From Podarcis cretensis (lineage: Eukaryota): DNA of 64,000 nt. The translations under genes were made by a program, and so were the position numbers. Where the stretch lies: NCBI GenBank assembly GCA_951804945.1, contig OX638154.1, positions 53,692,001-53,756,000 on the forward strand. The letters run 5' to 3'. Shown here piece after piece: positions 1 to 30,718 of the stretch; position 1 is the first letter of the stretch; each line of letters opens with the position of its first letter. The notes under the pieces were generated by a model that saw only the letters and a program-made list of their open reading frames with translations, searched no databases and was not told where the DNA came from.

Positions 1-86
1 CTTTGAATCTCATTAACTTCCCTACCAGGGATATATGAGTCAGCTTTCCATGTGCATGTTATGCTAGAAAAGGAGGCGGGGGAGAG

Positions 87-123
87 ATGTGCACTCGCCA
101 CCTGAGAGAGCTACCTGGACCAG
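87..123 (+). CDS. Putative first coding exon of the LRR membrane protein gene (MCTRHLRELPGP+G)
   Basis: ATG at 87 is open to a good donor CAG|GTATGG at 123/124 in phase 1, matching the phase-1 acceptor (pyrimidine tract, TAG|G) at 5879/5880. Joining gives MCTRHLRELPGPGQKRWTLILFGVVLLA..., a plausible signal peptide. No transcript evidence. Confidence 0.55.
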
Positions 124-3100
124 GTATGGGAAATGGGGTAAGAAGAATAAAACCCATAGCTGACCCAATATTTTTGCCGCCTGGGACAAAGGACAATATT
201 CCCTCCTCCTCAGTTGCACACACAGACGCGGACTAGACTAGCAGCTGAATCCTACTTCAGTGCTTTTGATGGGGCAACATCTCTCACTTCACCCAAGCGC
301 AGCAGGTTAGCTTAGTGGGTAGGGCGAGTGTTGTCATGCTCACATATTGCCTGTGGGCTTCCTGTGGACATCAACATGTTGACCATGTTGTGAACAGAAT
401 GCTGGACTAGATGGGGCTTTGGTTTGATCCAGCAGGGCTTTTCTTATGTGCTAATGGGGTGCAGGCCAGGTTGCATGACACACACACAGCTCTGTCCTCC
501 AGCACCTTGCTCCCACTCTGCTTGACACCTATATGCTACCTGCAGAAAGTAATGCTGTGTTGCAGCAGCTGCACCAATACATATCACATGATTGGAGTGT
601 GTGATGCCTATGGGAGTTCATGGCCTGGGCTGCAAAGTGCCTCTTTGCCTGCTCACAGTTGTGCTCTCTGTGACACATTGGGAGAAGGAGCCTAGGCAAC
701 ACAGCAAGCATTCCCACTACTGGGATCTTACTTCTACCAGCTCAAGGAGGATAGTTGCTGCTGCCACCACCCGGTATCCACTGCTCGAGGCAACTGCCTC
801 AATCGGCATAATGTTAGGGCCGGCCCAGAGGCTGTAAACAAAGGGATCACAGACTGCCTTGTGAATGCTATGGATCTAATCTAATATCCTGTGCCTAACA
901 GCAGCCTGAGTCAGATGCTTCAAAGGAAATGGTACAACAAAAGCACATTTGTAAAGCAAGCCATCCATTGTCAAGCATTTTAGTAGCTAGAAAATTTCGG
1001 GTCTGTATCCCTCCCACAAAATTGTACCTTAACAGATATTGTTTTGGCCTGACTACCATGAATTCGTCTCAATTTTTGGGGAAACTCATTAGTACTGTAC
1101 TAATTTTCATCCTATGATTCCATGACAAATACAAATCTACAGTTTAATCATGGCCCTTCTGGAAAAAAACAATTTTGCTCCTGGCCAAAATAGTGCTGGT
1201 TTCTGTTCACACCAACAGAGGTACGGCTGCTGCTCTTTGCCACTTATACATTTCTCAGGGAATTGGGCACTAATTTTAATAAGCTGCTTTACGAGTTGGG
1301 AATGGTCACTGGACCTTTAAGGACAATAGCCTGGGGAGGAAAAGCTGACATCGCTGCTCAGGAAGAGTCCAGGGAGGGACCCTATTCCGGCTCAAGGTAT
1401 TTTAATTGTTCCAGCACTGCCTAGATAAAATCAATGTCTCCTGAACGGGTTCCAAAGCACCACAGCTTCCGATTACACACAATGGCAGAAGCATAACATT
1501 GTAGAAACACAAGTAGCGGCTGGCTTGGCTATAAGATGGGAGGTTGTCAAGAGAGACAAATAAGAAGCAATTTAGCTTTTAGAAATCTAGGTCTGAGGTC
1601 TTAAAAGCTCAGGATTAAGCTGTTCCAGATCAGAACAATGTAAAATACAACTTTAAAAACACCTTAAAACAAATTACAACCGCAACTAGAGTGGGTCCTA
1701 AATTTATTTATATCTCGCAAGTGTCAAAGGCAAGGGTTAAGAGGTGTGTATCTTCAGCATAGGATGAAAACTGTACAATGAAAGTGCCAGACACACCTCT
1801 GTGGGGACTGAACTCCACAGTGTAGGGGCAGCCACTCTCTCTCATGGGTCAACCCCACGCCTGAGCTTCTGAGGGTGGAGGACCTTAACCCCAAGAGGGT
1901 CTGCAAGGAAGACTGTCTTTCAGATATTTGGGACTGAAGTCAGTTATATATATAAGTAAAATGACATCCAGTTACAGCAGATAAATGTTGTAAATACATG
2001 ATATATATATGAGCACCAGTTTGAGGTTGTGCCTCCCCGGCCCTGGAATCTACTAGCAAGAGTTTCTACATGGTACATTCTAGTCCAGGGATTTCCAAAC
2101 TGTGTGCCAAGACATGCCTTAAAAAAGTTAAGCCAGTGTTTTGGATTCATCCACCACTCTCTGCCTGTTGAAACACAGAGGCCCCAAGCAGCATTGATCC
2201 TCCCTCTTTCTGCCCATACATGGGCAGTGGCATCTTTCCAAGGGAATGAGTCTCCCTGACAGGCATAAGAGAATTCCAGAAACACCACCATTGCCCAGGA
2301 AGCCTGGCCTCATCCTGAACCCTTGAGTAAAGGGGAAGAGTGGACAGAGTTGCGGGCAATATTGATCATTAGTTGCAACGATGCCTGCCCATCTTTCTGG
2401 TAGAAGACCAACAAAATCTCTCTCTCTCTCCTTCTCTCTTTAATTAATTCATATTTTATTTGGGGGGGGGGACAAATATAAAGCAGTAAAGTGATACAAA
2501 AAGAAGAAGAAAAAAGGGAAAGGAACAAAACACAGAACTGTGTAAAGGGGGGGGAACATTATATGAATATGTACAAAAAATACCCTAACCCATACATTCT
2601 TTTATAAATTTGATGTTATCCTAATAGAAAAATTCCAAGGAAAGGTCTTCATGCTCAGCCCTGCCCAGGCTGTGGTGAGTAATAGCTGTACTACGGGCTC
2701 ACTCACTCATTCCTTGAAAAATGCCTCCCGTGTGCTGATATAATGTCTAAAGGCCACCTTAGCAAGAGTGTGATTACTTCTCTAAGCTGTGTTAACAGCA
2801 AAGATGGAGCTAATCACTGTTTGCAAGGGATTTGGAGGCAATTCTTTGTTTGCATTTGGTCTGGTTGCTTCAGAAACCCTATCAACATATGAGAGTGCCT
2901 AGGTAACCAAAGCAGGAAGGGTTGAGGGAGACACCTCAATACAAGTGGCAGGGAGTAGTTGGCTCTGCGCTGAAGATCAGTGGGGCAAATTTAGAGGGGA
3001 CACAATTACTTAGATCCTTCTTCCTGACTTCCTTACAGAAGGAGAGGTGAATGTGTGGCATTCCAGATATTGTTGAATTACAGCTGCCACCATCCCTGAC

Positions 3101-3595
3101 CATTGGCCATGCTGGCGGGGACTGAAGGGAGTCGGAGCCCAACAACATTTAGGGTGGTAGTCAATGCTAGTCTAAGGTTCAGTAGACCCAGCCTAGCACT
3201 TGTGTGTTCAATCTTTGTGTTTCATGGCTTTTTGCAACTACTGGAAAGGGACTAGGTTCAGGAGATTATAAATGCCTTCCTAGCACAGGGAATGGTTCCA
3301 GCTGCCAGGAAGGAAGAATATGTAAGACCACTCCTGAAGAAAGCCTCCTTCGATTCAGAGGATTATAATACTAAACAGTTGCAAATGTCTCTTTCTTGGG
3401 CTAGGTGTTTGAGTCAGTGATTGATGGCCAATGCAAGCACTAAATTATGTGTCTAGATAGGTTTGCTGGAACAAACGAGTTTTTAGCAAGAATTTAAAAC
3501 AGTATAGTGAAGGGGTGCCTGCCTAGTATCAGTAGTTCCAGAGGACAGGTGTTGCAATGCTAAAGGAGTGAGTTCCTGCAAATCAGAATTATATA

Positions 3596-3826
3596 CAGTG
3601 GTACCTCGGATTACAGATGCTTCAGGTTACAAACGCTTCAGGTTACAGACTCCACTAACCCAGAAATAGTACCTTGGGTTAAGAACTTTGCTTCAGGATG
3701 AGAACAGAAATCGCACGGCAGCAGCAGGAGGCCCCATTAGCTAAAGTGGTACCTCAGGTTAAGAACAGTTTCAGGTTAAGAATGGACCTCTAGAATGAAT
3801 TAAGTTCTTAACCTGAGGTACCACTG
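3596..3826. mobile_element. Tc1/mariner (Tigger-like) MITE, copy 1
   Basis: TIRs CAGTGGTACCTC...GAGGTACCACTG flanked by TA on both sides; closely similar to 5227-5444. Confidence 0.85.
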
Positions 3827-3828
3827 TA

Positions 3829-4635
3829 TGCAGAATTCATCATGCGAAAGGCTGGGCTGGATGAATCCCAAGTCAGAATTAAGATTGCTGGAAGAAATAT
3901 CAACAACCTCACATATGCAGATGACACAACCTTGATGGCAGAAAGTGAGGAGGAATTAAAGAACCTTTTAATGAGGGTGAAAGAGGAGAGCGCAAAATAT
4001 GGTCTGAAGCTCAACATCAAAAAAACGAAGATCATGGCCACTGGGCCTATCACCTCCTGGCAAATAGAAGGGGAAGAAATGGAGGCAGTGAGAGATTTTA
4101 CTTTCTTGGGCTCCATGATCAATGCAGGGAGAAAAGCAATGACAAACCTAGACAGCATCTTAAAAAGCAGAGACATCACCTTGCCAACAAAGGTCCATAT
4201 TGTTAAAGCTATGGTTTTCCAGTAGTGATGTATGGAAGTGAGAGCTGGACCATAAAGAAGGCTGATCACGGAAGAATTGATGCTTTTGAATTATGGTGCT
4301 GGAGGAGACTCTTGAGAGTCCCATGGATTGCCAGAAGATCAAACCTATCCATTCTGAAGGAAATCAGCCCTGAGTGCTCACTGGAAGTACAGATCCTGAA
4401 GCTGAGGCTCCAATACTTTGGCCACCTCATGAGAAGAGAAGACTCCCTGGAAAAGACTCTGATGTTGGGAAAGATGGAGGGCACAAGGAGAAGGGGATGA
4501 CAGAGGATGAGATGGTTGGATAGTGTTCTCGAAGCTACCAGCATGAGTTTGACCAAACTGCGGGAGGCAGTGGAAGACAGGAGTGCCTGGCGTGTTCTGG
4601 TTCATGGGGTACATGACTAAACGATTAAACAACCA
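3829..4635 (+). mobile_element. 5'-truncated RTE/BovB LINE, decayed
   Basis: ORFs 3842-4225 and 4225-4500 give the RT C-terminus (NNLTYADDTTLMAESEEEL, YGSESWTIKKAD, YFGHLMRREDSLEKTLMLGK); internal deletion, frameshift near 4222, stop at 4498-4500, AAC-rich tail. Confidence 0.92.
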
Positions 4636-5226
4636 CGTTATAAAGCTGTAAATTATGAAGTTTAAATGTACTCTTATCAGCCTCAACCAACAGGCTATAT
4701 ATATCCAGGCCCGGATTTGGACATCCTGCTGCCTGAATCTGGTCAGTAGTAGCTGCCCTTTCTCATACCAGCAACTTAGCACTTGGAGGAGAGTCATGCT
4801 GTTCACTGTGACTCCACAGTGCACCCAGTGACAAGTGTGGTGTGATTAAGGTCACCAGGCTATGGGGGGGTGAAGTACAGGTGCAGTGGTATAGCACAGT
4901 CTTCCTCAGAGCCCTTGGTTGCTGATAAGAGGAGGAGAGCTCTCAACCCTTTGGCCTCTGGGTCTTGATCCTTAGCGACATTCAAGGAAGAATATTGTTC
5001 TGTGATGCTACACCTGTATGGTAATAAGCTCCAGCGACCAGCAGGGGCACAAACTAGTGATGTCATTAGCCCACGCAGCCACCAGAAGCCTCCAGGTGTG
5101 TGTTCCCATTGATATGCTAGGAAGTAATGGAGTTGTTGCTTCATAAGTTATAATTGCAAGAATGGAATAGTCAAATATGTACCACTCTAAGCTCCTTTCG
5201 CAGTGAGCTGAAGCTGATACTCACTA

Positions 5227-5444
5227 CAGTGGTACCTTGGGTTACATACGCTTCAGGTTACAGACTCTGCTAACCCAGAAATATTGCCTCGGGTTAAGAA
5301 CTTTGCTTCAAGATGAGAACAGAAATTGTGCAGCAGCGGCAGCAGGAGGCCCCATTACCTAAAGTGATGCTTCAGGTTAAGAACAGTTTCAGGTTAAGAA
5401 CAGATCTCTGGAATGAATTAAGTTCTTAACCCGAGGTACCACTG
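5227..5444. mobile_element. Tc1/mariner (Tigger-like) MITE, copy 2
   Basis: TIRs CAGTGGTACCT...AGGTACCACTG with TA target duplication. Confidence 0.85.
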
Positions 5445-5557
5445 TATAGGTTTCACTGGACAGGGGTTAAATTTCCAAAGAGGGCATATGAACCCAAATC
5501 CAGCCCAGTTAAAACTTTAAATAATTTAATTGAATGTTTACTGTGTTTAAGCATACA

Positions 5558-5576
5558 TTGCCACTAGGGGGTGCTA
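5558..5576 (+). promoter_or_regulatory. Candidate CTCF site
   Basis: TTGCCACTAGGGGGTGCTA closely matches the CTCF core; motif match only. Confidence 0.5.
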
Positions 5577-5657
5577 ATGCATTAAATAAAATGGTATTCC
5601 TGGTTCTTTAAAATCTAATTCACATTATAATATGAATTTTAGCTCAGACACATTAAT

Positions 5658-5660
<3 letters not shown>

Positions 5661-5694
<34 letters not shown>
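5661..5694. repeat. (GT)17 microsatellite
   Basis: Read directly. Confidence 0.97.
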
Positions 5695-5696
<2 letters not shown>

Positions 5697-5879
5697 TAAA
5701 AATACCTATGCATTATTTGTGAATTTGGTGAACTACTGGAATCCAATTTAGAGGCAATGGCACTTCACAGATTATTGTCTGTTATGTCTGTCAGTGAACC
5801 AGGAACAACAACGTTGCCATCTAGTTCCCACCTGTAACCTGTGAGAAATCACTGATGCTTGTCATTTTTTTTGCTATAG

Positions 5880-7120
5880 GTCAGAAGAGGTGGACACTCA
5901 TACTCTTTGGCGTGGTCCTCTTAGCAAGAGAACTCGTGTTAGGAGCTCTGGAAGAGACGTGCAACTGCAGCGCAGAAGTTGATTTCCAGGAACTGCAGAC
6001 CAAACTGGCTCCTGAGATGTGTTGCTTGAATCTCACCAGGACTAAAATCAACTCCTTGGACTGGAGCATCTTCGCTGGAACTGCGGGTTTGAGGGAGCTC
6101 TACCTATCAAACTGTGGCATATCAGACATTATCAATGCAGAGAATGGCTCTTCTACATTGGAGATTCTACACTTAGACCATAACCAGCTAAGTTTGCTCC
6201 CAGATGGTTTCCTAAGAAATGCACCCAGCTTGCGTGTCATTCATCTGGAGAGCAACCAACTCCAGAAGCTGCCTGAGTCATTCCTGAAAGCATCTGACCA
6301 AATCCAGGAGATCCACCTTGCCTTCAATAACTTGTCTTCCCTTCCCTCGGGGATTTTCAAACCCTCCCTCCTCACGCTAGGTCTCTCCAACAACAGCTGG
6401 CACTGTACTTGCAGCTTGCTTGAAGATCTGGAAAAATGCCTGCCTGTACCATTTAACGTTGAGGTGGCTTGTAGCACCCCAGAGCGTTACCATGGCATGA
6501 ATCTCAGAGATATCCCTAAGCAGGAGGTGTGCCGGAACCATAGCCTAACGGCTCTCTTTGTTTGCCTGCCTGTGGTGGCTATTCTGGTTCTGGTCACCTG
6601 GTGCTTTTGCAAGCGGCAGAAGAAAACCAGCTACCATCCTCACGCTGGGAAGGAATGCCGGCTGGCTACAGTGGAGAGGAACGGTTCCAAAGACCCTGGG
6701 GACCATCACTGCTACATCCCGTGTGAGCTGCCTATGGCATCGGCTTCAGGGAGCGAGAAGAACATCTTGTTGAGGAACCAGGTCTTGCTAAAGCCTTCAG
6801 CTGCACTACTAGGGAGCAGCAGAGACCTCTATGAAGAGGTGGAGATCAAACTGGGAGCTTCTGATGATTCCTTGGTGAAGGCCAATGGGGAAAGCCTTGA
6901 GCAAGATAAGTCGGGATCCAAAAAAACGACCGTTGCAGAGGAGGGTTACACAGGTGGGGAGTCTGAAGCCGAGACAGTGAGTGTGACAGACGTTCTGAAG
7001 GATTCTGCAGACCGTGAAAAGCTCTATATGAACCAGTCGGTAGATTATTACAACCTGGTTCCAGGCATTGAACTGGAGGACTCAGACCACATGGAGTATG
7101 AGAATGTTGACCTTTGCTGA
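5880..7120 (+). CDS. Single-pass type I LRR membrane protein (LRRC25-like), main coding exon; ~425 aa with exon 87-123
   Basis: Open frame 5855-7120. Hydrophobic signal segment, Cys cap (CNCS...CCLNL), about six LRR units (LRELYLSNCGI, LEILHLDHNQL, LRVIHLESNQL, IQEIHLAFNNL, LLTLGLSNN), LRRCT (NSWHCTC...CSTP...C), TM helix LTALFVCLPVVAILVLVTWCFC (~6545-6610), basic stop-transfer KRQKK, acidic tail with YEEV, YMNQ, YYNL, YENV. The ORF ATG at 5855 lies in the acceptor pyrimidine tract. Confidence 0.9.
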
Positions 7121-8878
7121 GGCTGCTTGTTGATCCATAGTATGATAAGAACACAAAATAGGCTAATTCTTATCCAGTTCCCAACATTATGCAAACTTCA
7201 CAAATAATGAGAGTTCTCTTGTAAATGATTTTGTGTTCCGGGATTTGCTCTTCTTTCTTCTGAGCCTTTGGAATGACACAGGTGTTGTTATTAATATGCC
7301 TAGAAGAACATTTGTATTAGGGTCTGTTCCACTTTGGGGGGGGGGTGTGATGGAGGGACAGTATGAGCTGCAGTTTCTAGCCCTTTGATAGAATTAATTT
7401 TAATTGCGGTTTCCAGTAGAGGTGAAGATTTCTCATGATCTAGCCTCCTTCCAGGAAATAAGATGCGGAACACAAGACTTGGGGGCAGTGGGGAGCCCAT
7501 ATGAGCAGGGATGAAGGTTGCAAACTGGGACAGGATAACAGCTGTGCCCATTCTTTTTTAATCTGCCATTTTATTTAGAGAATTTTTTGGCATTTTTAGA
7601 TTTTTTTGGGTATTACATATCCCTGCCTGGCTTTGCCTGCAGCTCCCACTTAAATCCCCAAACCCTCTTCACTGACCTCCTTTTCTGCTGTGTGAGCTGG
7701 TCTCTGCACTTCAGTTTCTTTCCCTGTCAAACACCAGTCATAGATGGGCTCTGCATTCCAGGAATCTCCTCCAGTTATTTAAAGGCTTAGGTTTCCACTG
7801 CAAGGAGGAGAGTGACATCTAGTGGAAAGGTCTGCACATAGCCACCTTTCTTTCTGCCGTCCTTCTAAACATTGAAAAACTTTTCCAGCATATTTTCACT
7901 ACATCCAATTAATATTTCTCTGATCTAAGTTAAGTGCATTCGTTTCCTTCTGTTTATTCTCATGGAACTTGCTATGCATGTAGCCTGATCTGGGGTGACA
8001 GGTAGGTCCTGCCTCTTGTTTTAAAGATGGTGTTTTGACCCCTTCTGCTCTTATGATTCAGCAGCTGAGCATCATAGAAGTTTATGTGGCACAGAGGTTA
8101 ATGAAACTAGAGTGGCTGGTTAGTAGAAATCAGCATATGAAACTCACACACAGAGAGAGTTCTTGTTTCATATTTTCCCCTTAGGACTGCCATTGGCAGG
8201 AGAAGCCACAACTGGCAGAATTCCCCTTCTCAGCACTGGCCCTTCCATTTGCCAGACAGAGGCAAGTACCTCAGGTAGCAGATGCTGGGGGTGCAGATCA
8301 GTAGCAAGAAGTTGGTAGACAGCGTGGTGTGTGCTAAGCTTCCTAAGCTGGGCTTCTGCTCTCATAAGCATTACTGCCTCCGACTATAAATGCAGCACAT
8401 AACCATCATGGCTACTAGCCATCAATAGCCTTGTCCTCCATATATTTGTCTAATGCTTTCTTGAAGCCACCTAAGTTCAAGACCATCACTGCCTCCTCTT
8501 GGTAGCTAATTCCATAGCTTAACTGTGCACTCCATGAAGAAGCACTTTTATCTTCCCTCCAACATTCAGCATCATTGAATGTCCACAAGTTCTAATGTTA
8601 CGACAGAGAAAGAACATTTTTCTATCCGCTTTCTTCACATGATGTATAATTTCATAAACTTCTGCCATGTCACCTAAAACGTCTCAAATGCTGCAGCCTT
8701 TCCTGGTAGGGGTGTTGCCCCATCAGCTGCTGTAGAGGATACTGAGATGCCACCAATGTTAAGATAAAATTCAGTCGCCAGCAATCTAATCGTGTATGTG
8801 GAATTGAAAGAGAGAATGTACTGTACCTCAAGGCATAAAATGTCCTCAGCAGGTTTTGTCAGAGTCTAGGCCAGGGTC

Positions 8879-9132
8879 CTGAAGCTGAGACTCCAATACT
8901 TTGGCCACCTCATGAGAAGAGAAGACTCCCTGGAAAAGACCCTGATGTTGCGAAAGATGGAGGGCACAAGGAGAAGGGGAAGACAGAGGACAAGATGGTT
9001 GGACAGTGTTCTTGAAGCTACCAGCATGAGTTTGACCAAACTGCGGGAGGCAGTGGAAGACAGGAGTGCCTGGCATGCTCTGGTCCATGGGGTCACGAAG
9101 AGTCGGACACAACTAAATGACTAAACAACAAC
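8879..9132 (+). mobile_element. Short 3' fragment of RTE/BovB LINE with 11-bp TSD
   Basis: Translates MRREDSLEKTLMLRKMEGTRRRGRQRTRWLD; (CAA)n tail; TSD AGGCCAGGGTC at 8868-8878 and 9133-9143. Confidence 0.92.
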
Positions 9133-9136
9133 AGGC

Positions 9137-9258
9137 CAGGGTCTCCAGCTGTTGTTGGACTACAGCTCCCATCATCCCTAGCTAACCAGGACCAGTGGTC
9201 AGGGATGATGGGAATTGTAGTCCAAAAACAGCTGGAGACCCAAGTTTGGGAAACCCTG
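9137..9258. mobile_element. Palindromic hAT (Charlie-like) MITE, left end partly deleted and hit by the BovB fragment
   Basis: Inverted arms GGGTCTCCAGCTG...CAGCTGGAGACCC; right TIR TTGGGAAACCCTG; 8-bp TSD GTCTAGGC (8864-8871)/TTCTAGGC (9259-9266). Confidence 0.8.
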
Positions 9259-10394
9259 TTCTAGGCTGAGGATGAGGCACCTCAGGCCTGCAAGGTGTCT
9301 AATGCATATCTCTCTCTGGCCCCCTGGGGCTCTCCCCATGCCTTACACTACTCCTCCACAACCACCTCAAGTGCTTTTCCCTGGTTAGACTGTGTCCTTG
9401 AATTTTGATATTGTAAAGCTCTTTGTACCGTCTTGCAATGCTTCCCAGTTTTCTCAGAAGCAAGATGTTTACTGTACAAATGTATTCCATATGACAGATG
9501 AAAGCTCTGCTTCCCAAAGAGACACTGGCATCTTAACTCCCCATCGTTATAAACCACAATACACTGAATGTAAAAGACTTAACATATATTTTGTCCTGAT
9601 CTAACATTTGTAGTAAACTAGTCAATCTATGATCTTTCTGGACTGCATCCCTTTCAAAAAGAGAAGAAAAGAATACTAGCGTATGTGTGTGTGTGGGGGG
9701 GATGTAAATAACATGGAATAAATGGCTATGTTCTACTTTTGTAAGAGTTTAACAAAGATGCAAAAGTGTGTCTTTTTCTTGCTTTCGTCTTGCTGTTATA
9801 TGGACGGAGATGGCTCAAGACATTTTGCCACCTGAGGTGGACCAGCAAATGATGCCCCTGCCACCCCACCTCCTCCTCCTCCTCCTAAATACTGCCCCCC
9901 TCCCATGCTGCAGTGATAGACTTGCTGCTGGCTTCTCCTCTTCCTGCAGCCATTTTTCTGCACCCTTACTCAGAATGAGGCATTGTGGAACAACTGGGTG
10001 GGATTTGCCTATTGAGACAGACATTCAGCAGGTGCAACATTAATGACTTACTCTTTAATGCTCTTTTCATCAAAGATGTACAACTATGGAATATGCTCTG
10101 TCCTACCAGGCAATACCACCCACCCACCACAACTTAGCCACAATTGTGTCACAACTTTTGTGGTTGTAATTTGGTCAGCTCTGCTTTAATGCTTCCTCTT
10201 ACTACACTCCTTCCCCGCCCCCCGCCCCCATCGGAACTGGCTGGGGAAAATAATTCATTGTAATTTTGAAAGGCGTTACTTAAATTATCCAACAATCTTT
10301 AGACAACAGAACTCCAAAACAAGAGGGACAGGTGGGGAACAGGTGTGTTTGCTTTAATCCTGAAGAAGAACTGAAAAATTAGATTTAGATCAGC

Positions 10395-10590
10395 AACATG
10401 CTGCTTATGACAAATACTGCCTTGTACAGAGTCAGGCCATTTGTCTATCTAGCTCAGTACTGTCCCTGCTGGCTGGCAGTGGCTTTCCATGGTTTCAGAA
10501 AAGGAACAATTGCAGCCCTACCTGGAGATGCTGTGGATTGAACCTTGGGACCTTCTGCCTCAACTCTGCTACTGAACTACGACCCTTCCC
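10395..10590 (-). mobile_element. Decayed tRNA-derived squamate SINE (Squam3-like)
   Basis: Antisense tRNA-like head (GGATTGAACCTTGGGACCTTCTGC...CTACTGAACTAC) plus LINE-like tail; approximate boundaries. Confidence 0.5.
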
Positions 10591-12792
10591 TAAAGCAAAT
10601 GAGAAAGCTCTCTTGAAGGATGGATTTACAAGCAGCAATAACCATTGCCATCCAAGCCTACATCCCCGTGGGATAAATTACGTCTTTATGACACCGCAGA
10701 GCTGTAAATTCATTATCTGTGTAAAGTCTAGCTATGTTTCCCAGGGGAATTCTCACAGAGGATATATTTCATCCATTCTTCAGAGCCAACTGTTAGCAAC
10801 AAGTTACTATGACATGGTGTGAAATGGGAATCAATGAACAATGATGTAGGTCTCCTGCAGGCAGGTGTTTCTGAGCTAATGCTCCTTGTTCACTCCTGTT
10901 CTCTGTTTCTGGCACCAGGCTGTCTGATGCAGGTTAATCCACAGCCCTTTTGTAGATGTCCAGTGAGTGAGCATGTGGATGAGGGAGGAACTGTGATCAG
11001 ATCCACTGTGTCTTCCCTTTCTGCTATTATTTTATTATGGTCCCCCCCCATCTTTTCATCCGAATATTACAAGAAAACAAAAATTCCTTTAGTGCCGAAA
11101 TCATAAGGAACATTAACATTCTTTGGCTGAAACCCTGGTCACTCATTAATGGAGATCCAGAAAAGCTAAGATCACAGCAATGCACTGACAATACACACCT
11201 ATTTATGTGCCTATGTTCTTTATGCACATAGACACATGCTCATCCTGTAAAGTGTGATGAGTGCCTAAGGCTGCACCTGGAGATCAGCTTCTCACAATGA
11301 CGATTGTGTTAGTTTGGAATTGTGGAAACCTTACCAGAATAAACACAGCACATGATTGCATGATCTGTACAGACAAGAGCACACATGGCTTGGAGTAGTA
11401 TTGATGTGATATACATTACAGACATACCTGGTGTCTTGAAGCATCAGTAGTCTTTAAGGTTTTGGTTACTTATTTATTTAACATAATTCATATACTGCTT
11501 GATTGTCGTAAAACCTCAAGTGAGTTTACAAAAAATATTAAAAATTAAAGTTAAAAGCAGGTCTTTAACTACTTTAAAGTAGTTCAAAAACTACTTTAAG
11601 GCAGCAAAAACTAAACAACAATGAAAACACATGTAACTTCTACACGTCTGCATAAGCCTGCCTAAACAAAAATGTTTTAAGCAGGCATTGGAAAGAGGAC
11701 AGTGAAAGTGTCAATAGGCAGGGAGTTCCAAAGTGCCACACTAAAAGATCGGTTTCTTAGAGAATGAGTACTGTATGGCAGATGTAGCAGTGCCAGTTCT
11801 GCAGAGCAAAACACTCAAGTGGGTATATATAGGGTAAGGCGATCCCGCAAGTAAACTAGTCCCAACTTGCTAAGTTCTAATAGTAACACATTGAACTTGG
11901 TCCGATTTAGAGGCAGGCCTGCTATAAAAATGGTGGAAGGGAGAAGAGAACACTACCTTAAGCTCTTTAGGAAAAAAGGTGAGGTGTAAATGTCATGAAT
12001 AAATTAGAATGGAATTTCCATCTATGGCTTAATTTTCACAAAAGTAAATTATAACCATGAACATCACATAGGCATTTACACAGTTCCCTGTTCTTGGGCT
12101 ACTAACAGCCCACCATCAATCATTCTGAGCAGTCAAGTTTATTTACAATGAGTAAGATATTTAAAGGAAGTGGGTAGCAGCTTTTCTTCTTTCTCTGCAT
12201 TAGTGAGACTGTTATAACCAGCCTCAACTGATCTCCCAGGACAGGTAAGAAGTTCTAGCTTCTTTTCATCAGGGAGGTATTGTCACGTTGCGGTTGCCAC
12301 TCCACCCTTCCACTCTGCCCTAAGCAAAGCTCCTGTGCCTTTATTGACTGAATGGCAGTAGAAATCTAACAGTGACAGCAATAGTTTTATCTAATGCTGC
12401 TCATGCCTGCTGAATATCCACTTAGTAAGCCAAAGCTAGAGGAGCTCTCTCTCACACGCAGCAGCTCCAGCGCTGGGCTGGCCAGGCAAGCAGCCTTTCA
12501 TTTCTCCATGTGTCCAGGCAGCTGTCTTGCTCAAGATTGCCTGTAAGTCTAAGTGCAAGTCTAAGCATGTTTACCCCAAAATAAGGCCCTCTGGTTTCAA
12601 TGGGACTTACTCCATTGTAAGTGTGCCTAGGATTGCGGCCTATGGAAAGTCATCTTATGCTGCCTGCTATGTTTTTGTGGACTTCCAAATCCGAGTTACT
12701 CTCTCGTCTCCTCTTATTTACCTTCTTAGGTCACCCCCTGGTTCACCTCCACTGTTGTTTCTCAGTATCTCTCCAGACATGAGTAGTGGTAT

Positions 12793-15150: not shown

Positions 15151-18100
15151 ATGACAGTCTCCTACACCTTGAAAGTGGCCAATGCTCGCTTTGGGGGCTT
15201 CTCCAAGCTACTTTTTCGTTGGAAAGGGAGCATCTACAAGCTGCTCTACAAGGAGTTCATTGTCTTCGTCTTGCTTTACGGAACACTAAGTGTCATCTAC
15301 CGGTAAGTTGGCAATATCCTGTTTAATGGAATGAAACCTCTCCAGGGGGACATAGTTAAAGACGTCTGAAATGGTTGAAGAACGTAAAATTGCTGTTCTT
15401 TTTTTAGGAGCATTCAATGTTGTGGTACTTTTGCTCTCAACTTTCAGAGCTTCCTTACCAATCTGCTTGCCCCACTTTAAACCAACCTCAGAATTACACT
15501 GTTTAGTGGGAAGGAAGGCTTCCAGGGGTGACTTTCTTGCTGGGCCTTTCTCTGCATTACAATTGCATTCCACGCAGCCCACCAGGTCATTTATATGGGG
15601 ATTTCTTTCCATCACAATCATGCTCTTTCCAGACCACCAAATGGGCTGCAAGGAGACCAAATACATGGTGCTCCCCACCCCCCTGCGACCCCTGAAGCAA
15701 AATTTGGCAGTGCTCAAGGGGCAAATTTGGCTGTGGGAGGCAGACTGAATACCTGCAGTGGGCTACACAGATGGCCTGCAAAGGGCTATGGGTTGTCCTC
15801 ATGTGTTTTAAATATTGTGTTTTTAATATTTTGTTGGGAGTCACCCAGACTGGGCCAGCCCAGTCATATGGGAGACATATAAATAAAATAATAGTAATAG
15901 TAATCATTCTAGTAAATAAATCAAATTGTTCTAACATTCAGGAGAATCTGTTTCCCCTGAGCATTATTAGTTGGCCAGGATGGGTGAGTGGGGTATTGTT
16001 GGATTCTGCTGAGAAGGGTAGAGCTTAGACTACAGAGACTGCCACATTTATGCCTAGAGGCTCATGCCCTGCAACCCATAAATGACTTAAGCCCCAAATA
16101 TCTGAAAGACCACCAATGTCAGAATTGATGGAGTGTTTAAATCAGCAGAGACCTCTTGGTAGGGCTTTGAGGGTTTGAAGGGTACCACCTTCCCAAGAAG
16201 GCATTATCTGTAGCAGCCCCTAAGTTGTGGAGGTCCCACCCCACAGGGGTGTGTCTGGCACGTTCTTTATATAGCTCTTAGCAAATGCTGAAGATACATC
16301 TCTGTACCCTGGCCTTTGATATCAGTGCTGTGTATTTTTGGGACTATTCCTGTGACTGCAATTTGTTTTAGCTGTTTTTAATACAGAATTTTAAATAGTT
16401 GTAACCAGCCCTAGGACCTGCTAGTGAAATCTGTTGGAGGTGGTATTAGTGTTGTGTTGTTGTTGTTTTAATATTCCTTGTATCCTTGAAAGAATCCTAT
16501 TGTTTGCCATAGTGACAGTTATTTTGGTACTTAACCAAGCAGAGGGATTGCTTTGGCAGGGACAGAGAAGAGCCCTGGCTCCTGTTTAATTGAAGAAGAA
16601 TGTTTATATCATGAGAGAGTTCAAGCCTGTTATTCTTCCCCGTCTCCTGTAGGCACCTTCTGAATGTGGATCAGAAACGTCTCTTTGCAAAGGTGGCTGA
16701 ATACTGCAACCGCTCAACTGACCTCATCCCTCTGTCCTTCGTCCTAGGTATGATTATGTACCTGCTCTTGATAGGAGGCCTTGTTGCTATGGTTTCTTGA
16801 TTGCTTGCTTTAATTAAGGCCAGATGCATACATTTGGCAAAAGCCCCTTTAATCTTTCGATTGCACAGAATCCCAAATTATTTCCCATTGGGAGGTACCA
16901 CAAATCAGTGGCAGAGCTCATGGTATGCATCCTGGAGTGAATGAGGAATCAGATGATCTGAAGGACTCTTGCCATAGACCACTCTAAAAGTCTTGCTCTG
17001 AATTACTGCGGAGGCTGACCCTGATTTTTGTGTGTGTGCGTGTGTGAAAGTGAGATTAATGCAGCAAACACCACATCACGAAAAAAGAAATGTGAGTGGT
17101 GTCACAAAACGAAAAAAGGGAAGTTAAAAAGTAGGAGGTGGATAATTAAAATGGAAAAGGAAGTGACAGCTTGACAGGTGAGAGAGTTTATGTTTAAACG
17201 ATGTACAGCTAGGGCTGCAAAAATGCACAATGAACATGCCTGACTCTCCTGAGTAAACAGACCTAGTTTTCACATTAGAAGAGTCTATATCAGAAATGCA
17301 AGCCTATATTGATCTGCTTAAAAATGATTCCCTTATGAATTTTCATTGCCTTTGCAAAACTTTACTGTAAAAAGGTCAACTAAAGTAAAACTGCAGTTCT
17401 CCCTAGCCTGAATTATTAGGTGTTGACTTGCTATTCCTAGAAGGAAGGCATTAGAAGGAGTAAACAATGACTCTCCATGCAGGCCAGGTGTTCTTTCGAG
17501 CTTCCAAGAAGCCTATATCATGCCATAGCAAGCATTGGAAGGGAAGGGTAAGATGGGACAACCCTTATATTAGGCATATGGGTAGCTGCCTCAGGCAGAA
17601 GATACTGATGACTAAGGACCAGAGTTGAGGTGTTAGAAGGCAGAGATCTGTGTGTACCATGGGGCCTGCCCTGCACTTACTAAGCTAGCCTTCAGGCATG
17701 GTTGAGGTTGCTGGCACATCAGTACTATTGTCGACTCTGTTTCCATACATGCAATATGCAGGTGGGGTGGGAAGAGGAACCCTCTTGTTCTTTGTCTGGA
17801 TGGGAAACATACCATTTTTTTCCCTCATAGGAAAGCTTCAAGAAGGGAAAATGGGAGGGCAGGGGGGAAACCCAGTGGTTTTGAATGTGTTGATCTTTTG
17901 TTTATATGTGCAAATCTAGATAAGAGCAAGGGTTGGTTTTGCCTCCATGCCTGCCAGAATCCCTGAATATAACTCTTTGCACTTCCCTGTTTTGTATGGC
18001 TGCTGTTTGGTTTTTGATTCAGCCACAGCCTGAAAAATGCTCTTATTTCTTTCCAAGAGTGTTAACTCTTTAAAAAAGAGTGAAATTTCAGCAGATAAGA

Positions 18101-21100
18101 TCGGTACTCAATTGAAGATTATGACAAATCCTAAGCACCCTGGCAATTTCCTAGAAAAATGGTTCCCACCATTAACATGTGTGGATGCTTTGAAGGATTT
18201 TTGTAAATAAACTGCCTCTAAATTGTGATTAGGGGGACGCAGGTGGCGCTGTGGGTTAAAGCCTCAGCGCCTAGGACTTGCCGATCGAAAGGTCGGCGGT
18301 TTGAATCCCTGCGGCGGGGTGCGCTCCCGCTGCTTGGTCCCAGCGCCTGCCAACCTAGCAGTTCGATAGCACCTCTGGGTGCAAGTAGATAAATAGGGAC
18401 CGCTTACCAGTGGGAAGGTAAACGGCGTTTCCGTGTGCGGCTCTGGCTCGCCAGAGCAGCGATGTCACGCTGGCCATGTGACCCGGAAGTGTCTCCGGAC
18501 AGCGCTGGCCCCTGGCCTCTTAAGTGAGATGGGCGCACAACCCCAGAGTCTGTCAAGACTGGCCCGTACGGGCAGGGGTACCTTTACCTTTACCTTTAAA
18601 TTGTGATTGCAGACTTCTGCATTAAGTATTACAGAATTTTATTTGCCTAACAAGAAACAGCAAGCTATGAGGTACACAGTATATTGAAACTTTTCGTTAC
18701 CAAATTCTAAATGTAAAAAATAATTTGACAACTTCATAAATCTTTAGTTTTGTAGCTTTCATAAATGTTTTTGCTTCTTTTGTAATGACCAACCAACAAA
18801 AAGGGAAGTGAAATTTTGTCTTGTGTCATACAGATAAGTTCTTTCACAATTCCTTACCAAATTATTTGACAAGTTAACCAACTCCTAGAGCTCAAATGGG
18901 TAGAATGTTTCTGCTCTCAGTGCCAACGTGCTAAAATGGCAGTTCATTATGCCTGATGACTTTGCCTCATGCTCTCTCACTGTCTCCAAGTCCTCATCCC
19001 TCATCCATCTCTCTCTCCTGGCAGGTTTCTATGTCACACTGATCGTGAACCGCTGGTGGGCGCAGTATACCAGCATTCCTCTGCCAGACCAGCTCATGTG
19101 CGTCATTTCCAGCAATGTGCATGGGAAGGATGACAAGGGCCGCATCTTGCGCCGCACTCTCATCCGTTACGCCAACCTCTCCTCTGTGCTCATCTTGCGC
19201 TCGGTCAGTGCTAGAGTCCTTAAGAGATTCCCCACTATGGACCACTTAGTTGAAGCTGGTGAGTTTAACTTGGGGAAAGGAACAGGATGGTCTGGGAGTC
19301 TCCTTTTATTAGTCTTTCTAAGGTGCCACAGGGATCAAGAGATTATTCCACCAGAACTTATTATGACCCAGTGTCACTGACTGGTGGCCCCTGAACCTCT
19401 TCCCAGTATCAAGGAGCAGATGGAGAGGCAGTGCTCCAACTTTCCCTTGCTCTCTTGCAGGTTTCATGACACAAGATGAGCGCAAGAAGTTTGAGAGTCA
19501 CTACTCAGACTTCAACAAGTATTGGATCCCTTGTGTGTGGTTCACTAATCTAGCAGCCCAAGCCAGGCGGGAAGGAAGGATCCGGGATGACGTGGCACTC
19601 AGATTGCTCATAGATGTAAGTATTGCAGTCAAATTGCTTTACCAGCTATGCAAACGTGAAATAACCACCTGTCTTTCTCTATCCAGGAACTGAACCTCTA
19701 CCGCTCCAAATGCAGCATGCTTTTCCACTATGACTGGATAAGCATCCCCTTGGTGTACACACAGGTGAGCAAGGAGCACTCCACATCCTCTGGATACTCT
19801 TGCACATCTCAATGCTCATCTCTCAGTAGCAGTTTTGTTCCTACAAGTAGACTAAAGGTTACTTTTCCCATACACTTTCTAAATCTCTCTCTTGGTGCAT
19901 CTCCACAGCACAACTCTACTTAGTTTTATTTAACATCTCATTTTTTTATTGCAGAAGAAAGGAACAAGTTTCCAGCTCCAAAATATTTGATGTTCGTTGG
20001 GAAACAGCTGACTAACAAGCTGGGAAATAGATCAGTTTGTGAAAGTGCCAGTTTAATTGTTTTTGAATTGGTAGGGTGCGCAGGACATGCTAGCGCATAA
20101 TGTGCAGACCTCCTGTACTGTAGAATGTTTTGGTTTCTGCAATGAAAAGCATAGTTCCACGATGCTCTCTTGAAACTCTGGCAAATGTTTAACAGCCGCT
20201 TCTCCACAGGTGGTCACCATTGCTGTCTATTCCTTCTTTGCTTTGTGTGTGATTGGGCGTCAGTTCCTACAACCTGTGGACCCAAGTCAAAACAAAACAA
20301 TGACAAAAAAAGATGAGGACCTAGATCTGTATGTTCCCTTACCTACTCTTCTACAGTTCTTCTTCTATGCTGGTTGGCTGAAGGTAAGGATGTTGGCTCC
20401 CATTTTCCATGCAGATGGCTTCATCTGACTTGATCTCCAGTCTTCAAATTATAAGAGATGGGGTGCTGAGACAGAGTTGGTGTGAGCATCATTGCATTGT
20501 TTGAACCAGATGGGAAGATTCAGCTCAGGAGGCTGTCCCCATCTGCAGATTCTGTCGCTTCTGGATATTACAGTACTGTAAAGAGAAGTGGGCTGTGGGT
20601 GTTCTTCCATTCCAGCCTCGATTCCACTCTCCCTGTCATTGAGTCAATTCCTGAATGAGCATGCGCAATTCTCGTTGGGCTGGTTTATTGCAGTTCCTCC
20701 CCTAATGGTCCCTACCCTGAAGGTGTTTTAAACCTTTGCACACTGTAAGGTTCCCCCAGCCTGCTGTTACCTCTCCTTGTAGCAGGGTGGTAGTGATTTG
20801 CCTACACAAACAACACTCACAGCCTAAATGCTGGAAATAAAGGGAGCAAAGACTTGCAACAGAAGGTGCAAGTCAGATGCTCACCTGAAGAAGTAAACTG
20901 TTCTGATTGTGGATGCTCAGTCTCCAGCCTTCCTGTTTACTGGGGAAGGTCTGCAGAGGACTTCTGCTTGTGCCCACTGGAGTAGAGTCCTCCATAAGAT
21001 CAAGGGCCCCAGTAAATCGCAATGGGGGCGGTTTCGTGCACATGGGGATGCTAAAGGGTTGCATGTGCAACACGCCACCCACCCCATTCACAGTTTGAAC

Positions 21101-23502
21101 ATTTGTGTGTTCAGGCATGAACATGGCTAAAATACAGCAGCTTCACTGTTCTGGATTGCAAGCACTGTTTTGTGTGTGTGTGTGTGCACACTGTCATTTT
21201 GGATAGGAACCAGCACCCAAAGAACTAGCAAGCATATTAGTATATGCAACACAGCAGCTCAGCTACCTCTTTAATACTTTTTAATCACATCAAAGCAGAA
21301 TGCTTTGCAATGTTTGGTTCTGTTTTCCAGAGAATGCCATTGGCAGTGAAGACAAGCTAGATGAGACTGTGCTTAGAAGGGCTGCCTGCTAAAATTTACA
21401 AAAAAGGATAGCCCTAATGCCACTCAGTTCCCTCCCACATTCAAATATGGAATATTCATATGCTACACCTTTCTTTTCCTATAGGTGGCAGAGCAGATAA
21501 TTAATCCCTTCGGAGAGGATGACGATGACTTTGAAACTAACAAATTGATAGACAGGAACCTTCAAGTGAGTCTTAAAACAAAGGCCTAGTCACACTTCAC
21601 ACAGGTATATCCAGCATACAACTTGGCGCCCTGGGTGTTTGGGTATTTTTTCATATAATGCTTAATGACTGCCATGCTGGCCTGAAAAATCTGGTAAGCT
21701 ATTTGTCATCTATACTGTTCTACCTCTGTGTATACCTTCTTTCCCATTTCTGCTCTCCAGTCTGAACCTTTAACTTTCTCTAAACTTTTTATGCAAAGCA
21801 ATGGATGCAGAATAGACCATATATCAAAGAATCAATTGTCTTTACCCACATGCTGAATATAGCGCCCTGAATATTCAGTTTGTCTATTAATGCTCCCCTT
21901 CCCACTTTTGACAGGATACTTTCCTTGATAGTACACACAATCCCCTTGTAGGCTTGGACATAAACCAGTTCACCTTTTATTGGGACAACCAATTGCTTAC
22001 TTCAAATCTCTAGTAACACATAGAAAAAGTGGCACTTAGAGTGAGGCAATTTGTACTTTTTGTAGTATCATGAGGAACATTCTAAGATCTTGTTAATTGG
22101 ATCTTTTTTCCCTGGTTATTAAATGATTTTTGTTTTACAGATCTGCAAGTCACTTTGAGACTTTGATTTTTGTTTTACAGATCTGCAAGTCACTTTGAGA
22201 CTTGTACAAAGCAATGAATAAATGTAATCAATCTTAGTAATACAGGCATAAAGGGTGCAACTGTCGATCTGAGACAGAAGCATTTTTATTTAGCTGCCTC
22301 TTATATTGCTGGTGTTCTTTTGATACTTTTTCCTATTGAGAACCTTGTGTTAAAGCACAACTGTAATTAAAGCACAATTGTAATTAAAGCAATTACAAGT
22401 CTTATGCAGGTCTTTGATGAGAAATATTCCTTTGTCTGCTCAGGTGTCTTTGCTTTCAGTGGATGACATGTATCAGAACTTACCACCAACTGGAAAAGAC
22501 AAATACTGGAATGAATCTACAGCTCAGCCCCCATACACAATTGCCACAGTGGCAGAGACCTTGAAACCTTCCTTCATGGGTTCTACCTTTGACATGCGGT
22601 AAGTTCAGCTATGTTGCCATGGCAAAAGGCTGACAACCTGAGCCTGGCAACTTTGTCAAATACAATCTCTTCCATCAGCTATAAGGGAGGGGACCATTTT
22701 CCTGGATTGCATTTTACCATCTCAGCCTTTACTTATAGAGCTTTTACAATTAGCCCTGAATCCAGTGTTAAGAGGGAATATTTACACAATGCATAATGAA
22801 CACAGGATGCATACTGTGAGCAACAGGGCCACATCCAAAAATGGCAAAGTGGCCTAATCCAATCCTGGTTAGCTAACAGGCCCAACCACTTTTTAGAGAT
22901 ACAAGAACCTACAACAATATCAGATCATTTGGTAAGATTGTATGAATGCATCCACCCCACTGTTGCATCATTTTCCTTTGAATTTCATAGTAGGAAATCT
23001 GACCATTCTGATGGTATGGGCTAATTTCAGTGCTTCAATCAGGTGTATGTTTACTTCACCCAGTCTGTTCCCCTTCTGCAGGATGAGTGATGACCCAGAG
23101 CAGAGCCAGCAGGTGGAAGCATCACCCAGCATGAGCCGCATTCAGACTCCCCTGCTCAACCGCTTCCTCACTGCAGCTGCCTCTCCTGCAGTCAGCCTCA
23201 AAAATTTTGGCAAGGGCAGTCGGATTCAGCATCCCCAGCTACTGCGCCTAAGGACTGAGGGCACTTTCCCCTCTTCCAGCCCCAGCTTCTATCGCAGGGA
23301 AGATCCTGAAGCAGTTGGTCGCATTGACGAAGAAGACATGGAAGATGAAGAGACCAGACTTAGTGAAACCTCCTCCCCTGGCTCCCACCTCAAAGTCCCC
23401 CATAAGAACACAAACGCTGAGAATCTGAGAAAAGAGCTGCCCAGCATTACAGTGGTGGAGCCCCCAGATGAGATCAGTATCAGTGACCAACCATCTAACT
23501 AA
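15151..23502 (+). CDS. BEST4: Bestrophin-4, Ca2+-activated anion channel, 514 aa
   Basis: Exons 15151-15302, 16653-16747, 19025-19258, 19461-19615, 19687-19764, 20210-20383, 21485-21565, 22444-22598, 23082-23502; all GT-AG, 1545 nt in frame. [18 protein letters not shown] start, [12 protein letters not shown] neck, RFP motif, [11 protein letters not shown] Ca clasp, SFMGSTF segment. BEST4-type [11 protein letters not shown] and [19 protein letters not shown]; convergent with RPS8 as in human. Confidence 0.96.
18231..18596 (+). mobile_element. Full-length Sauria (Squam1-type) SINE in a BEST4 intron
   Basis: GGGACGCAGGTGGCGCTGTGGG head, (ACCTTT)n tail, TSD TAAATTGTGATT at 18219-18230 and 18597-18608. 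Confidence 0.93.
22124..22203. repeat. Perfect 40-bp tandem duplication
   Basis: TGATTTTTGTTTTACAGATCTGCAAGTCACTTTGAGACTT twice. Confidence 0.95.
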
Positions 23503-23771: not shown

Positions 23772-25861
23772 CAGGTACTTGCAGTGATGCAGCTTTTTGG
23801 AATCAGCACTCAGTTGAAGAGTTAATTTAGTTTATTTTATTTATATTTATCGAACAAATCTAAGAAATATTGATTTTACATACTGTATAAATAGCTGAAA
23901 GGTTTTTTCAATAGAGAAATGTGTGTGGTTAAACTGAAATGTCGGAGGAAATTCTAGGGAAGCACAATGAAACAAATTCAAAGCTTACTTTCAAAATGTT
24001 TATTGTAAGGCTGCAATCCTATACTTATTTACCTGAGTTAATGAACTCAAAATAATTTACTTCTGAGTAAGCATGTACAGGATTACTCTCTCCCTCCTCC
24101 TATTAGTATAAATATCATATTTATTAGTAAATAGGTCAATGGGGCTTATTTCTTAGTAAGCATATTTGAAAGTGCAGCCTGAGAAGGGGCTATGAATGAA
24201 GGCATTGAAATCTGACCATATGAGCATTCCTAGAGCTATACACACAAAATAACTTAGGATAATCTCCTGAATAAGTTAACTCCAACTTTGATTTTAGACT
24301 ATTACTGTAAAATTTTAGTAGTGGGATGAGCACTGTATCTAGCTGCATATGCTTTCTGTAAAGTTATGCGGAAGTCTGGAGATTTGCTATCTGTCCAAAC
24401 CCATATAAGCAAGCCATTTATTTGTCTGGTATGTTCTTAGAGATCCATGCTCCCATTCATAGAACTGGTCCTTACCCTCTCAAACTGATGAAAATGTATC
24501 TTGTTAGAAGATAGTATTGTTCCCAGCCTTCGAAAGGACCAGACTTTTGGAAAGAGGCCTGGCCCTTCTGCTAGAAGGGAGTTAATCTTGCACTGGAATG
24601 AGACCAGAATGTCACGAAGAAGACAATCTAGACACTTAGCAGTGCACCAGTTGTTTTGTCGCTAAATGTAAAAAATTCAACTAACAGCTTCCAATTTGGG
24701 CAGTTCAACTGCCAACAACAAACGCATTAATAATTTTCTCAGCTTCCATTCATTAATACCCTGTGCACATACCTAATCATTAGAAATATATGCTATGCAT
24801 TGGAAGAGGATGAAGGCTCTGAAAATCTGTTCTCCATGGGGCCACCAAAAGCCGGATATTTTGAAGTGCACACTACAAAGCTCATGTTGCAAGGGAACTG
24901 GGAGAATAGAAGACAACACACCTGTGCTGCTGACATTTATAGCGCCATACTGTATAATGAGAGTTCATCATACCTAAATATAGAGCTTCAACCCTATTCA
25001 GGGAAACTTAACAGTTATTAACTTTAAGACTTGGGCAATTTAGCAAAGACGTAAATGCAAAGCAAAACTTTGCTGCTGTTATACTACAGAGTACTCAACA
25101 CACAAATCAAACAACCATGGCAGATTGATGGTCATTAAGTCCTTAGTTACTTATATACTATTCTAAACAAAAGTGAACCCACACCCCCTCAATGCATGTT
25201 CGAGGGAGTAGTATTAGTAGGCATGCCCGATGGCATTTGGAGACTACCAATTCTACACCGTGAAGAATCCCGTTCAGCAATCCTGCCTGCCAAAATCACA
25301 GCTCTAAGGGTGGCATTTTAGTATAGTGGTAAGGAAAAGCCTGACCCGACCATTACAACAGCATGTGCTTTTTAAGGCGGATGAAGCTTCCAAGTCAAAC
25401 AACTTTCACTCATTTTTTTAAAAAAAACTTCCATACAAGCATACTTAGTGTTAATGCACTAGCTCCTAAACAGGAGGAAGCAACTGCTCCCTGGGTTTTT
25501 AGTATCAATGTAGAACAGCAGCTAAACAAATGCCTGGCCTTAGTATTTTGTCCAAACCCAGGATCCTGGTTAATGTGTCTCTTCCTTAACCACAACGTGT
25601 AACCACAGGACAAACATTGGCTACAGTTCATGGTTAAGGAGGAGAAACCCTAACTAGGATCCCAGGTTTAGAAGACATATTAAGACAAACCTTGCATTAG
25701 CTTTCATCCCATAGCACTTAAAAATCCTGGGAGGAAGCTAAGTAGGTGTGAGCTCCTCGTCAGCAACCAACACGTTCACATGGTCACAGTAAACCATACT
25801 CAAGTCTTTGCCTCACTGTCCATAAATAATCACATCAATCATTTATACAAGACTGTAGGTA

Positions 25862-25867
25862 TTTATT
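25862..25867 (-). terminator. RPS8 polyadenylation signal
   Basis: AATAAA on minus strand ~25 nt after the stop; short 3'UTR is typical of RP genes. Confidence 0.8.
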
Positions 25868-25891
25868 CAGCACATTAGATACAGTGACTGT

Positions 25892-30718
<4,827 letters not shown>

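Follow-up and report, generated by a model that had tools for sequence, protein, structure and literature searches.

What kind of receptor is encoded beside a bestrophin gene in the lizard Podarcis cretensis, and through what might its tyrosine-rich tail signal? The question was raised by a sequence-only reading of a 64,000-nucleotide stretch of contig OX638154.1 (assembly GCA_951804945.1; G000:C6:53692001-53756000; hereafter, the window), which proposed an orphan leucine-rich repeat (LRR) receptor related to LRRC25 and carrying a Grb2-binding, adaptor-like tail. The analysis described here favours, on balance, a non-catalytic LRR receptor that probably arose as an ancient duplicate of LRRC25 and was probably lost in mammals, and that, judging from its sequence, would act as a phosphotyrosine scaffold driven by Src-family kinases. 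A receptor that is found from sharks to birds, and whose disordered tail is better conserved than its ectodomain, would suggest a signalling route of some importance that mammals have apparently given up.

Gene Structure and Protein Architecture

The gene is real and spliced, and a search of the lizard genome identified a single copy. Its product is a type I membrane protein of 419 amino acids (aa), equal to the 419-aa lacertid records and 95% identical to that of Lacerta agilis. The true first coding exon precedes the window by 2.4 kb (G000:C6:53689584-53689602) and falls within a CpG island; it encodes MGRDGA and the first base of a glycine codon, and is followed by the donor GTGAGT. Intron 1 takes up positions 1..5879 of the window, and exon 2 (5880..7120, plus strand, as for all features of this gene) contains the rest of the open reading frame (ORF), with a stop codon at 7118-7120. 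Contigs and stranded reads, the latter at a depth of about 3-5, cover exon 2 and continue to 7199, the end of the stretch to which they were aligned. The GT..AG joint between the upstream exon and 5880 is present in contigs X1 and X5, which derive from two studies, and in a single raw read from X21; this splicing evidence comes from four aligned sequencing runs, and no listed run containing the gene is on record as RNA. The lacertid records start with MGRDGAG, the sequence of the upstream exon. The start at position 87 that had been proposed earlier was not borne out, as the supposed exon 1 (87..123) has no splice joint, shows bin depths of 0, 0, 0.35 and 0 in the four runs, and is absent from the lacertid N-termini compared. 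An alternative first exon, used by two database models of a 443-aa isoform and placed at 5005..5096 by tblastn, is likewise unsupported here, having no splice joint in the four runs and a bin depth of up to 1.13.

The architecture proposed for the protein was present in full: six LRR strands, an LRRCT domain, one transmembrane (TM) segment, a juxtamembrane CxC and a 169-aa tail. A signal peptide is predicted at 5880..5947 from hydropathy and from a helix in the structural model, its cleavage site being inferred. It is followed by a non-canonical cysteine cap (CxC...CC) with the first strand (5948..6061), which Pfam LRRNT does not match; the four cysteines are kept in 125-128 of 133 sequences. 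These sequences, on which tail conservation was also counted, are 90% clusters and not independent of one another. The LRR strands (6017..6400; Pfam LRR_8, E 1.3e-17) comprise one capping strand, four canonical strands, and one running into the LRRCT (6386..6532), where a CxC is kept in 131/133 sequences and the last cysteine in 130/133, the Pfam LRRCT match itself falling below the cut-off. The single TM segment, recognised by hydropathy at 6545..6610, contains a conserved L-T (126/133) and proline (129/133) and ends in the juxtamembrane cysteines, which are predicted to be palmitoylated and the last of which is kept in 126/133. AlphaFold modelled a confident six-strand solenoid (predicted local distance difference test, pLDDT, of about 90 in the strands) and TM helix, with a tail that is predicted to be disordered (pLDDT mostly <50); a fold search returned generic LRR proteins. 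With a signal peptide, LRRs, an LRRCT, one TM segment, and no Ig, FN3 or TIR domain, the protein belongs among the extracellular LRR-only type I proteins, its ectodomain measuring 200 aa. The tail is acidic (32 D/E vs. 20 K/R over 169 aa), and the ORF is far beyond chance, since matches to the tail alone reach the chimaera (E 1.7e-40).

Conserved Tyrosines of the Tail

All four motifs first noticed in the tail (DLYEEV, KLYMNQ, VDYYNLV and MEYENV) are present, and their tyrosines proved to be conserved, the five being kept in 125-132 of the 133 sequences. They fall into two boxes. Box A (6785..6856) contains Y324 (RDLYEEVEI), a Src-SH2-type site whose tyrosine is found in 128/133. The C-terminal box (6968..7117) contains Y389 (Y[ML]xQ), Y396 and Y397 ([TV]xYYxLVP), an acidic spacer, and Y413 (EYEx[VI]DL), with the tyrosines kept in 131, 132, 132 and 125 sequences, respectively. 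Mean conservation is 0.74 in box A and 0.80 in the C-terminal box, relative to 0.61 in the LRRs. Fixed elements include DLYEEVE, YYxLVP with T or V at -2 (118/133), EYEx[VI]DL, and a 13-residue spacer bearing the acidic ELEDSD, the length of which is kept in 123/126. At Y389, the glutamine is kept in 118/133; the resulting Y[ML]xQ presumably resembles a STAT3 site.

Candidate SH2 sites were scored additively with the matrices of PMC10065799 for three human domains (Src, SHP2-C and Grb2), and a score is not a measure of binding. Predicted scores at or above the 90th percentile of the Src matrix were obtained for Y324 in 125/128 sequences and for Y413 in 124/125, and of the SHP2-C matrix for Y396 in 117/132. 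As predicted in this way, the constant features of the tail are two Src-SH2-type sites (YEEV and YEx[VI]) and one SHP2-like site ([TV]xYYxL). Several observations weigh against this assignment. Acidic context alone raises the Src score, the near-invariant Y389 and Y397 match neither Src nor SHP2-C, and the last tyrosine motif is absent in two snakes (P0024 and P0028). Two further records depart from the common pattern: a pipefish protein (P0193) is without box A and the last tyrosine, and a gharial record (P0194) is missing the TM region, possibly through a model error.

The sequence-only reading had taken YxN motifs, and with them Grb2, as the defining feature of the tail, a view that did not survive counting: the +2 asparagine occurs in only 70, 80 and 74 of the 133 sequences at the three sites. 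Binding by the Grb2 SH2 domain requires this residue, according to PMC10065799, and the Grb2 matrix is predicted to fit 70-80 sequences per site. It is improbable, then, that the tail serves chiefly, as was first suggested, as a Grb2/Gads scaffold of the LAT/NTAL type, one that would drive Ras-MAPK signalling. The lizard's three YxN sites do lie at the 95th-99th percentile for Grb2, at least one YxN is kept in 117 of 132 members, and the juxtamembrane cysteines are there. At each site, however, the asparagine comes and goes, whereas the tyrosine, +1 glutamate and +3 hydrophobe stay fixed, and 15/132 members are without any YxN, including full-length teleost proteins. Moreover, transmembrane adaptor proteins (TRAPs) have few extracellular residues and a CxxC, according to PMC3342071, whereas the protein considered here has a large ectodomain and a CxC.

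The same tyrosines could also be read as YxxPhi sorting signals that adjoin an acidic cluster; the protein would then serve in endocytosis or scavenging instead of scaffolding SH2 domains. A hydrophobe does occupy +3 at Y324, Y396, Y397 and Y413, and the ELEDSD spacer is fixed in length, in keeping with YxxPhi and acidic-cluster sorting rules. On the other hand, the near-invariant +1 glutamate at two sites and the acidic flanks suit use by kinases and SH2 domains, five tyrosines exceed the need, and Y389 has a glutamine at +3; a sorting function seems unlikely.

Proposed Signalling Mechanism

For the preferred phosphotyrosine scaffold, a sequence of events may be sketched, each step of which (clustering, palmitoylation, phosphorylation, docking and recruitment) is inferred from sequence features. 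A putative ligand would bind the LRR solenoid and cluster the receptor, and palmitoylation of the juxtamembrane cysteines would hold it near Src-family kinases. These kinases would phosphorylate Y324 and Y413, where the pYE[ENS][VI] context could retain a Src-family SH2 domain and so sustain phosphorylation. An SHP-type phosphatase might then be recruited at the [TV]x-pY396-YxL of the C-terminal cluster, and Grb2 at whichever site retains the +2 asparagine. Such a receptor would behave as a tunable switch between activation and inhibition. By analogy with LRRC25, which is myeloid, the site of action is most likely leukocytes. Against this stands the fact that five zebrafish single-cell supplements (PMC8517238, PMC10948150, PMC5725498, PMC13381698 and PMC12724568) have no entry for the gene, such that leukocyte expression is unsupported by them, although further marker tables may have been missed. 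Zebrafish, Xenopus and chicken offer direct tests of the proposal.

Distribution among Vertebrates

A query with the TM segment and tail yielded 203 matches. Among the 120 of these that were listed, 103 are named (three without a full species) and 17 are unnamed; together they cover every class of gnathostomes apart from mammals, with squamates, turtles, birds, caecilians, salamanders, frogs, lungfish, coelacanth, non-teleost and teleost fishes, sharks, rays and a chimaera. An index-free search of 1.84e9 representatives returned 20 matches, of which 19 belong to the family and one is an unrelated Ig-repeat protein; 13 of the members were new, and the 10 that were looked up are from teleosts, a bird and a gharial. 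No jawless fish appeared among the matches. A tree of 132 members, leaving out one 69-aa fragment, is broadly species-tree-like, with every unnamed sequence inside a non-mammalian clade. The “orphan” of the sequence-only reading is uncharacterised, as claimed, and is no lizard orphan, its range being pan-gnathostome.

By full-length similarity that includes the tail, by its single copy, and by this phylogeny, the lizard gene is a member of the si:ch211-106k21.5 orthogroup, a placeholder name carried by coelacanth, reedfish, sawfish, chimaera and smelt records. Other records bear unrelated automatic names, as had been warned, including SLITRK, CHAD, LRIT, TLR and “bestrophin-4 isoform”. The present work corrects this annotation, in which the same protein is filed under many names and in some cases merged with BEST4. 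The gene is thus already in databases, yet it is undescribed in the literature found: no paper was found on it or on its si:ch211-106k21.5 name, and a search for LRRC25 and its paralogs gave no relevant title.

The gene has likely been lost in mammals, as had been suspected. No mammalian member turned up in the searches, with none among the named sequences of the 120 matches listed; mammalian genomes themselves were not searched. In sheep, a gene table in PMC6334744 gives RPS8, BEST4 and PLK3, with a 14-kb gap without any gene between BEST4 and PLK3. Two points tell against a loss. Of the 203 matches, 83 lie outside those listed, and a profile of sauropsid LRRC25 missed mammalian LRRC25, so that a fast-evolving mammalian copy of the window gene could be missed in the same manner.

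Relationship to LRRC25

Is the gene simply LRRC25? A separate LRR-TM gene lies on contig C18, and it retrieves LRRC25-named records from lizards, snakes, a turtle, alligator and birds; for this reason, orthology of the window gene with LRRC25 is rejected. The two genes form distinct clades in the tree. Lizard LRRC25 has two coding exons (G000:C18:9152613-9162299, L027-L028; orthologue entry G000:C18:9161364-9162299).

A paralogue of LRRC25 is another matter, and this the window gene quite probably is, on the strength of sequence comparisons. With lizard LRRC25 as the query, the best other match in the genome is the window gene, and an LRRC25 ectodomain profile places it at the top of 58 other lizard LRR ORFs (76 bits vs. 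52.7 for the next). Profiles of the LRR block of the two families are reciprocal best matches, and hhalign aligned them colinearly from the LRRs through the TM segment (213 columns, probability 99.85). In a tree of LRRCT-anchored segments, the window-gene family and LRRC25 were joined at 100/96; this tree contained 12 family members, 10 LRRC25 proteins and 34 controls, the latter picked by similarity to the window gene and not representing the whole LRR repertoire, after 16 redundant or false segments had been dropped and one family member left unanchored. The Atlas also listed an LRRC25 cluster at 0.95; a search there with the tail alone gave no usable match. Finally, POLO-box and SSDP families, presumably PLK and SSBP genes, both occur on C6, C11 and C18, as in a paralogon, although these are two marker families only; the C18 LRRC25 gene lies about 30 kb from its SSBP-family match. 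This link takes the place of an earlier argument from BEST2, said to share 19p13 with LRRC25: no bestrophin match was found on C18, and therefore the argument fails in the lizard.

The paralogy stood as the best-supported sister relationship, with alternatives surviving approximately unbiased (AU) tests, and a number of results count against it. The LRR-block window was picked after the alignment had been seen. A whole-ectodomain profile of the family puts lizard LRRC25 22nd of 59, and a single-sequence search puts it 29th. A thinned, LRR-only tree gave 88/36 and drew in a long branch, and the AU test kept both family+LRG1-like (p 0.31) and family+SLITRK-like (p 0.23). The tails do not align (hhalign probability 3%), and the YxN-tail likeness that had been offered as a sign of homology with LRRC25 gains no support from this result.

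These results feed the idea that the window gene represents an independent LRR family, its likeness to LRRC25 arising from a similar number of repeats and from convergent tyrosine tails. Such an ancestry, which concerns descent only, would fit the surviving AU alternatives, the non-aligning tails, the weakly supported thinned tree, and the remodelled LRRCT and second tail exon of LRRC25. It is nevertheless rather unlikely in view of the reciprocal LRR-block profiles, the 100/96 tree, the colinearity through the TM segment and the paralogous contigs. Identity with LRG1/PLA2-inhibitor or SLITRK was also rejected; these are automatic names, and separate genes exist, though the AU test kept both as sisters. 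LRG1/PLA2-inhibitor-like proteins, SLITRK and CHAD share generic LRRs and an LRRCT only, and in the lizard the LRG1-like gene has its own ORF on C18. The tail of the window gene recurs in none of the lizard LRR ORFs tested.

With LRRC25 (also MAPA; human 19p13.11) as the probable sister, the two have in common a signal peptide, a short LRR block that keeps the same register and closes with a shortened repeat, a single TM segment, a non-catalytic multi-tyrosine tail with a YEN[VIM]-type site, and a paralogous contig. The window gene differs in having one extra N-terminal repeat with the CxC...CC cap, a canonical LRRCT, juxtamembrane cysteines, and a longer, non-aligning tail encoded by a single exon, and in not having been found in mammals. 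It also evolves much more slowly than LRRC25, with lizard-bird identities of 52-54% and 34-37%, respectively. Human LRRC25 is myeloid and carries a YENM and an ITIM-within-ITAM, according to PMC6107485, and it has been listed as a mammalian singleton (PMC2235866). The relationship would give LRRC25 a family, together with a slower-evolving model.

Genomic Neighbourhood

The local order is a PLK gene (minus strand), the window gene, BEST4 and the RPS8-like host gene (minus strand). The PLK gene and the window gene are head-to-head; a shared promoter was rejected, given separate CpG islands 20 kb apart. The bestrophin gene lies next to the receptor gene, as had been stated, at 15151..23499 (plus strand; PF01062), and is BEST4 by position and database names. 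Beyond it, the host gene (24515..29427) serves as a synteny marker and has Rfam matches to two copies of SNORD38, SNORD46 and the SNORA35 clan; it is presumably RPS8, as matched by short motifs of that protein. The H/ACA snoRNA matched as SNORA35 (clan CL00034) is located at 24515-24647 on the minus strand, on the 3' side of the host.

Records from Rhineura and Anolis (P0003 and P0016) file the protein as a “bestrophin-4 isoform” (5880-15309 region), and a goose model (P0108) joins it in frame to the first coding exon of BEST4, aligning at 15142-15303. These models may reflect read-through transcription or an annotation merge. They also bring to mind a role as a partner of the BEST4 channel, or as a regulator transcribed together with it, in the way that LRRC26 serves BK channels, and the TM segment is indeed well conserved, with a Slo1-LRRC26 chain ranking fourth in the fold search. 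Such a role is highly improbable: the fold matches are generic to LRR proteins, the conserved tyrosine tail would be left unexplained, mammals retain BEST4, seemingly without the window gene, and the supplements of two best4-cell papers have no entry for it.

Other features of the region include retroelement fragments at 3595-4620, 5227-5447 and 8870-9120 (reverse transcriptase-like ORF pieces and SINE-like copies, presumably RTE/BovB and Sauria SINE), in the intron and downstream; reads multi-map heavily on the intronic ones. A CpG island is located at 58001-60000, about 28 kb past the 5' end of the RPS8-like gene, with no kinesin motif nearby as judged by short motifs. Another (G000:C11:42238001-42240000) lies 32 kb upstream of the C11 PLK gene, and no LRR or GAPT-like ORF was detected around it.

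Comparison with Known Receptors and Adaptors

LAT, NTAL, LAX, PAG and GAPT share with the window protein a single TM segment, membrane-adjacent cysteine, and an enzyme-free tail with several SH2-type tyrosines. They differ from it in that the window protein has a 200-aa LRR ectodomain and YxN is not fixed. Because of this large ectodomain, the protein is not a TRAP of the LAT/NTAL type, which is short extracellularly by the definition in PMC3342071.

GAPT deserves separate mention. The Pfam GAPT family (PF11770) matches 0/29 members of the window-gene family, and it matches the tails of sauropsid LRRC25, including that of the lizard, weakly and below the cut-off (11/24 proteins, best E 0.014), which hints at GAPT as a possible relative without an ectodomain. 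GAPT was not found in the lizard genome by Pfam, for which no positive control matched, nor within 120 kb beside the C11 PLK gene. In humans, GAPT is named together with PLK2 at 5q11.2 (PMC10827653). Because a PLK gene is head-to-head with the window gene, GAPT lies beside PLK2, and the LRRC25 tails show a weak Pfam GAPT match, it may tentatively be suggested, as a possibility with the odds against it, that the three are surviving descendants of a single LRR-phosphotyrosine receptor that was copied when vertebrate genomes duplicated early on. If so, the slow-evolving window gene would keep an ancestral ITSM/ITAM-like leukocyte LRR receptor of jawed vertebrates that mammals lost, and a TRAP would be seen to have arisen through ectodomain loss.

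Immunoreceptors with tyrosine-based inhibitory, switch or activation motifs (ITIM, ITSM and ITAM) also resemble the window protein, in that [TV]-x-Y-x-x-L is followed by YEx[VI] at a fixed distance. Their ectodomains are Ig or lectin domains, whereas that of the window protein is made of LRRs; its spacer is 12-13 residues rather than 7-8, and a strict ITIM ([SIVL]xYxx[IVL]) is present in only 34/133 sequences, with the T variant in 87/133. The ITAM consensus is given as YxxI/L-(7/8)-YxxI/L in PMC6107485, and the tail is not an ITAM because its spacing differs, with 13 residues in 123/126. Taken together, and as far as sequence features can predict, the window protein works like an LRRC25- or TRAP-type receptor, yet it is neither a TRAP, nor an ITAM receptor, nor LRRC25 itself.

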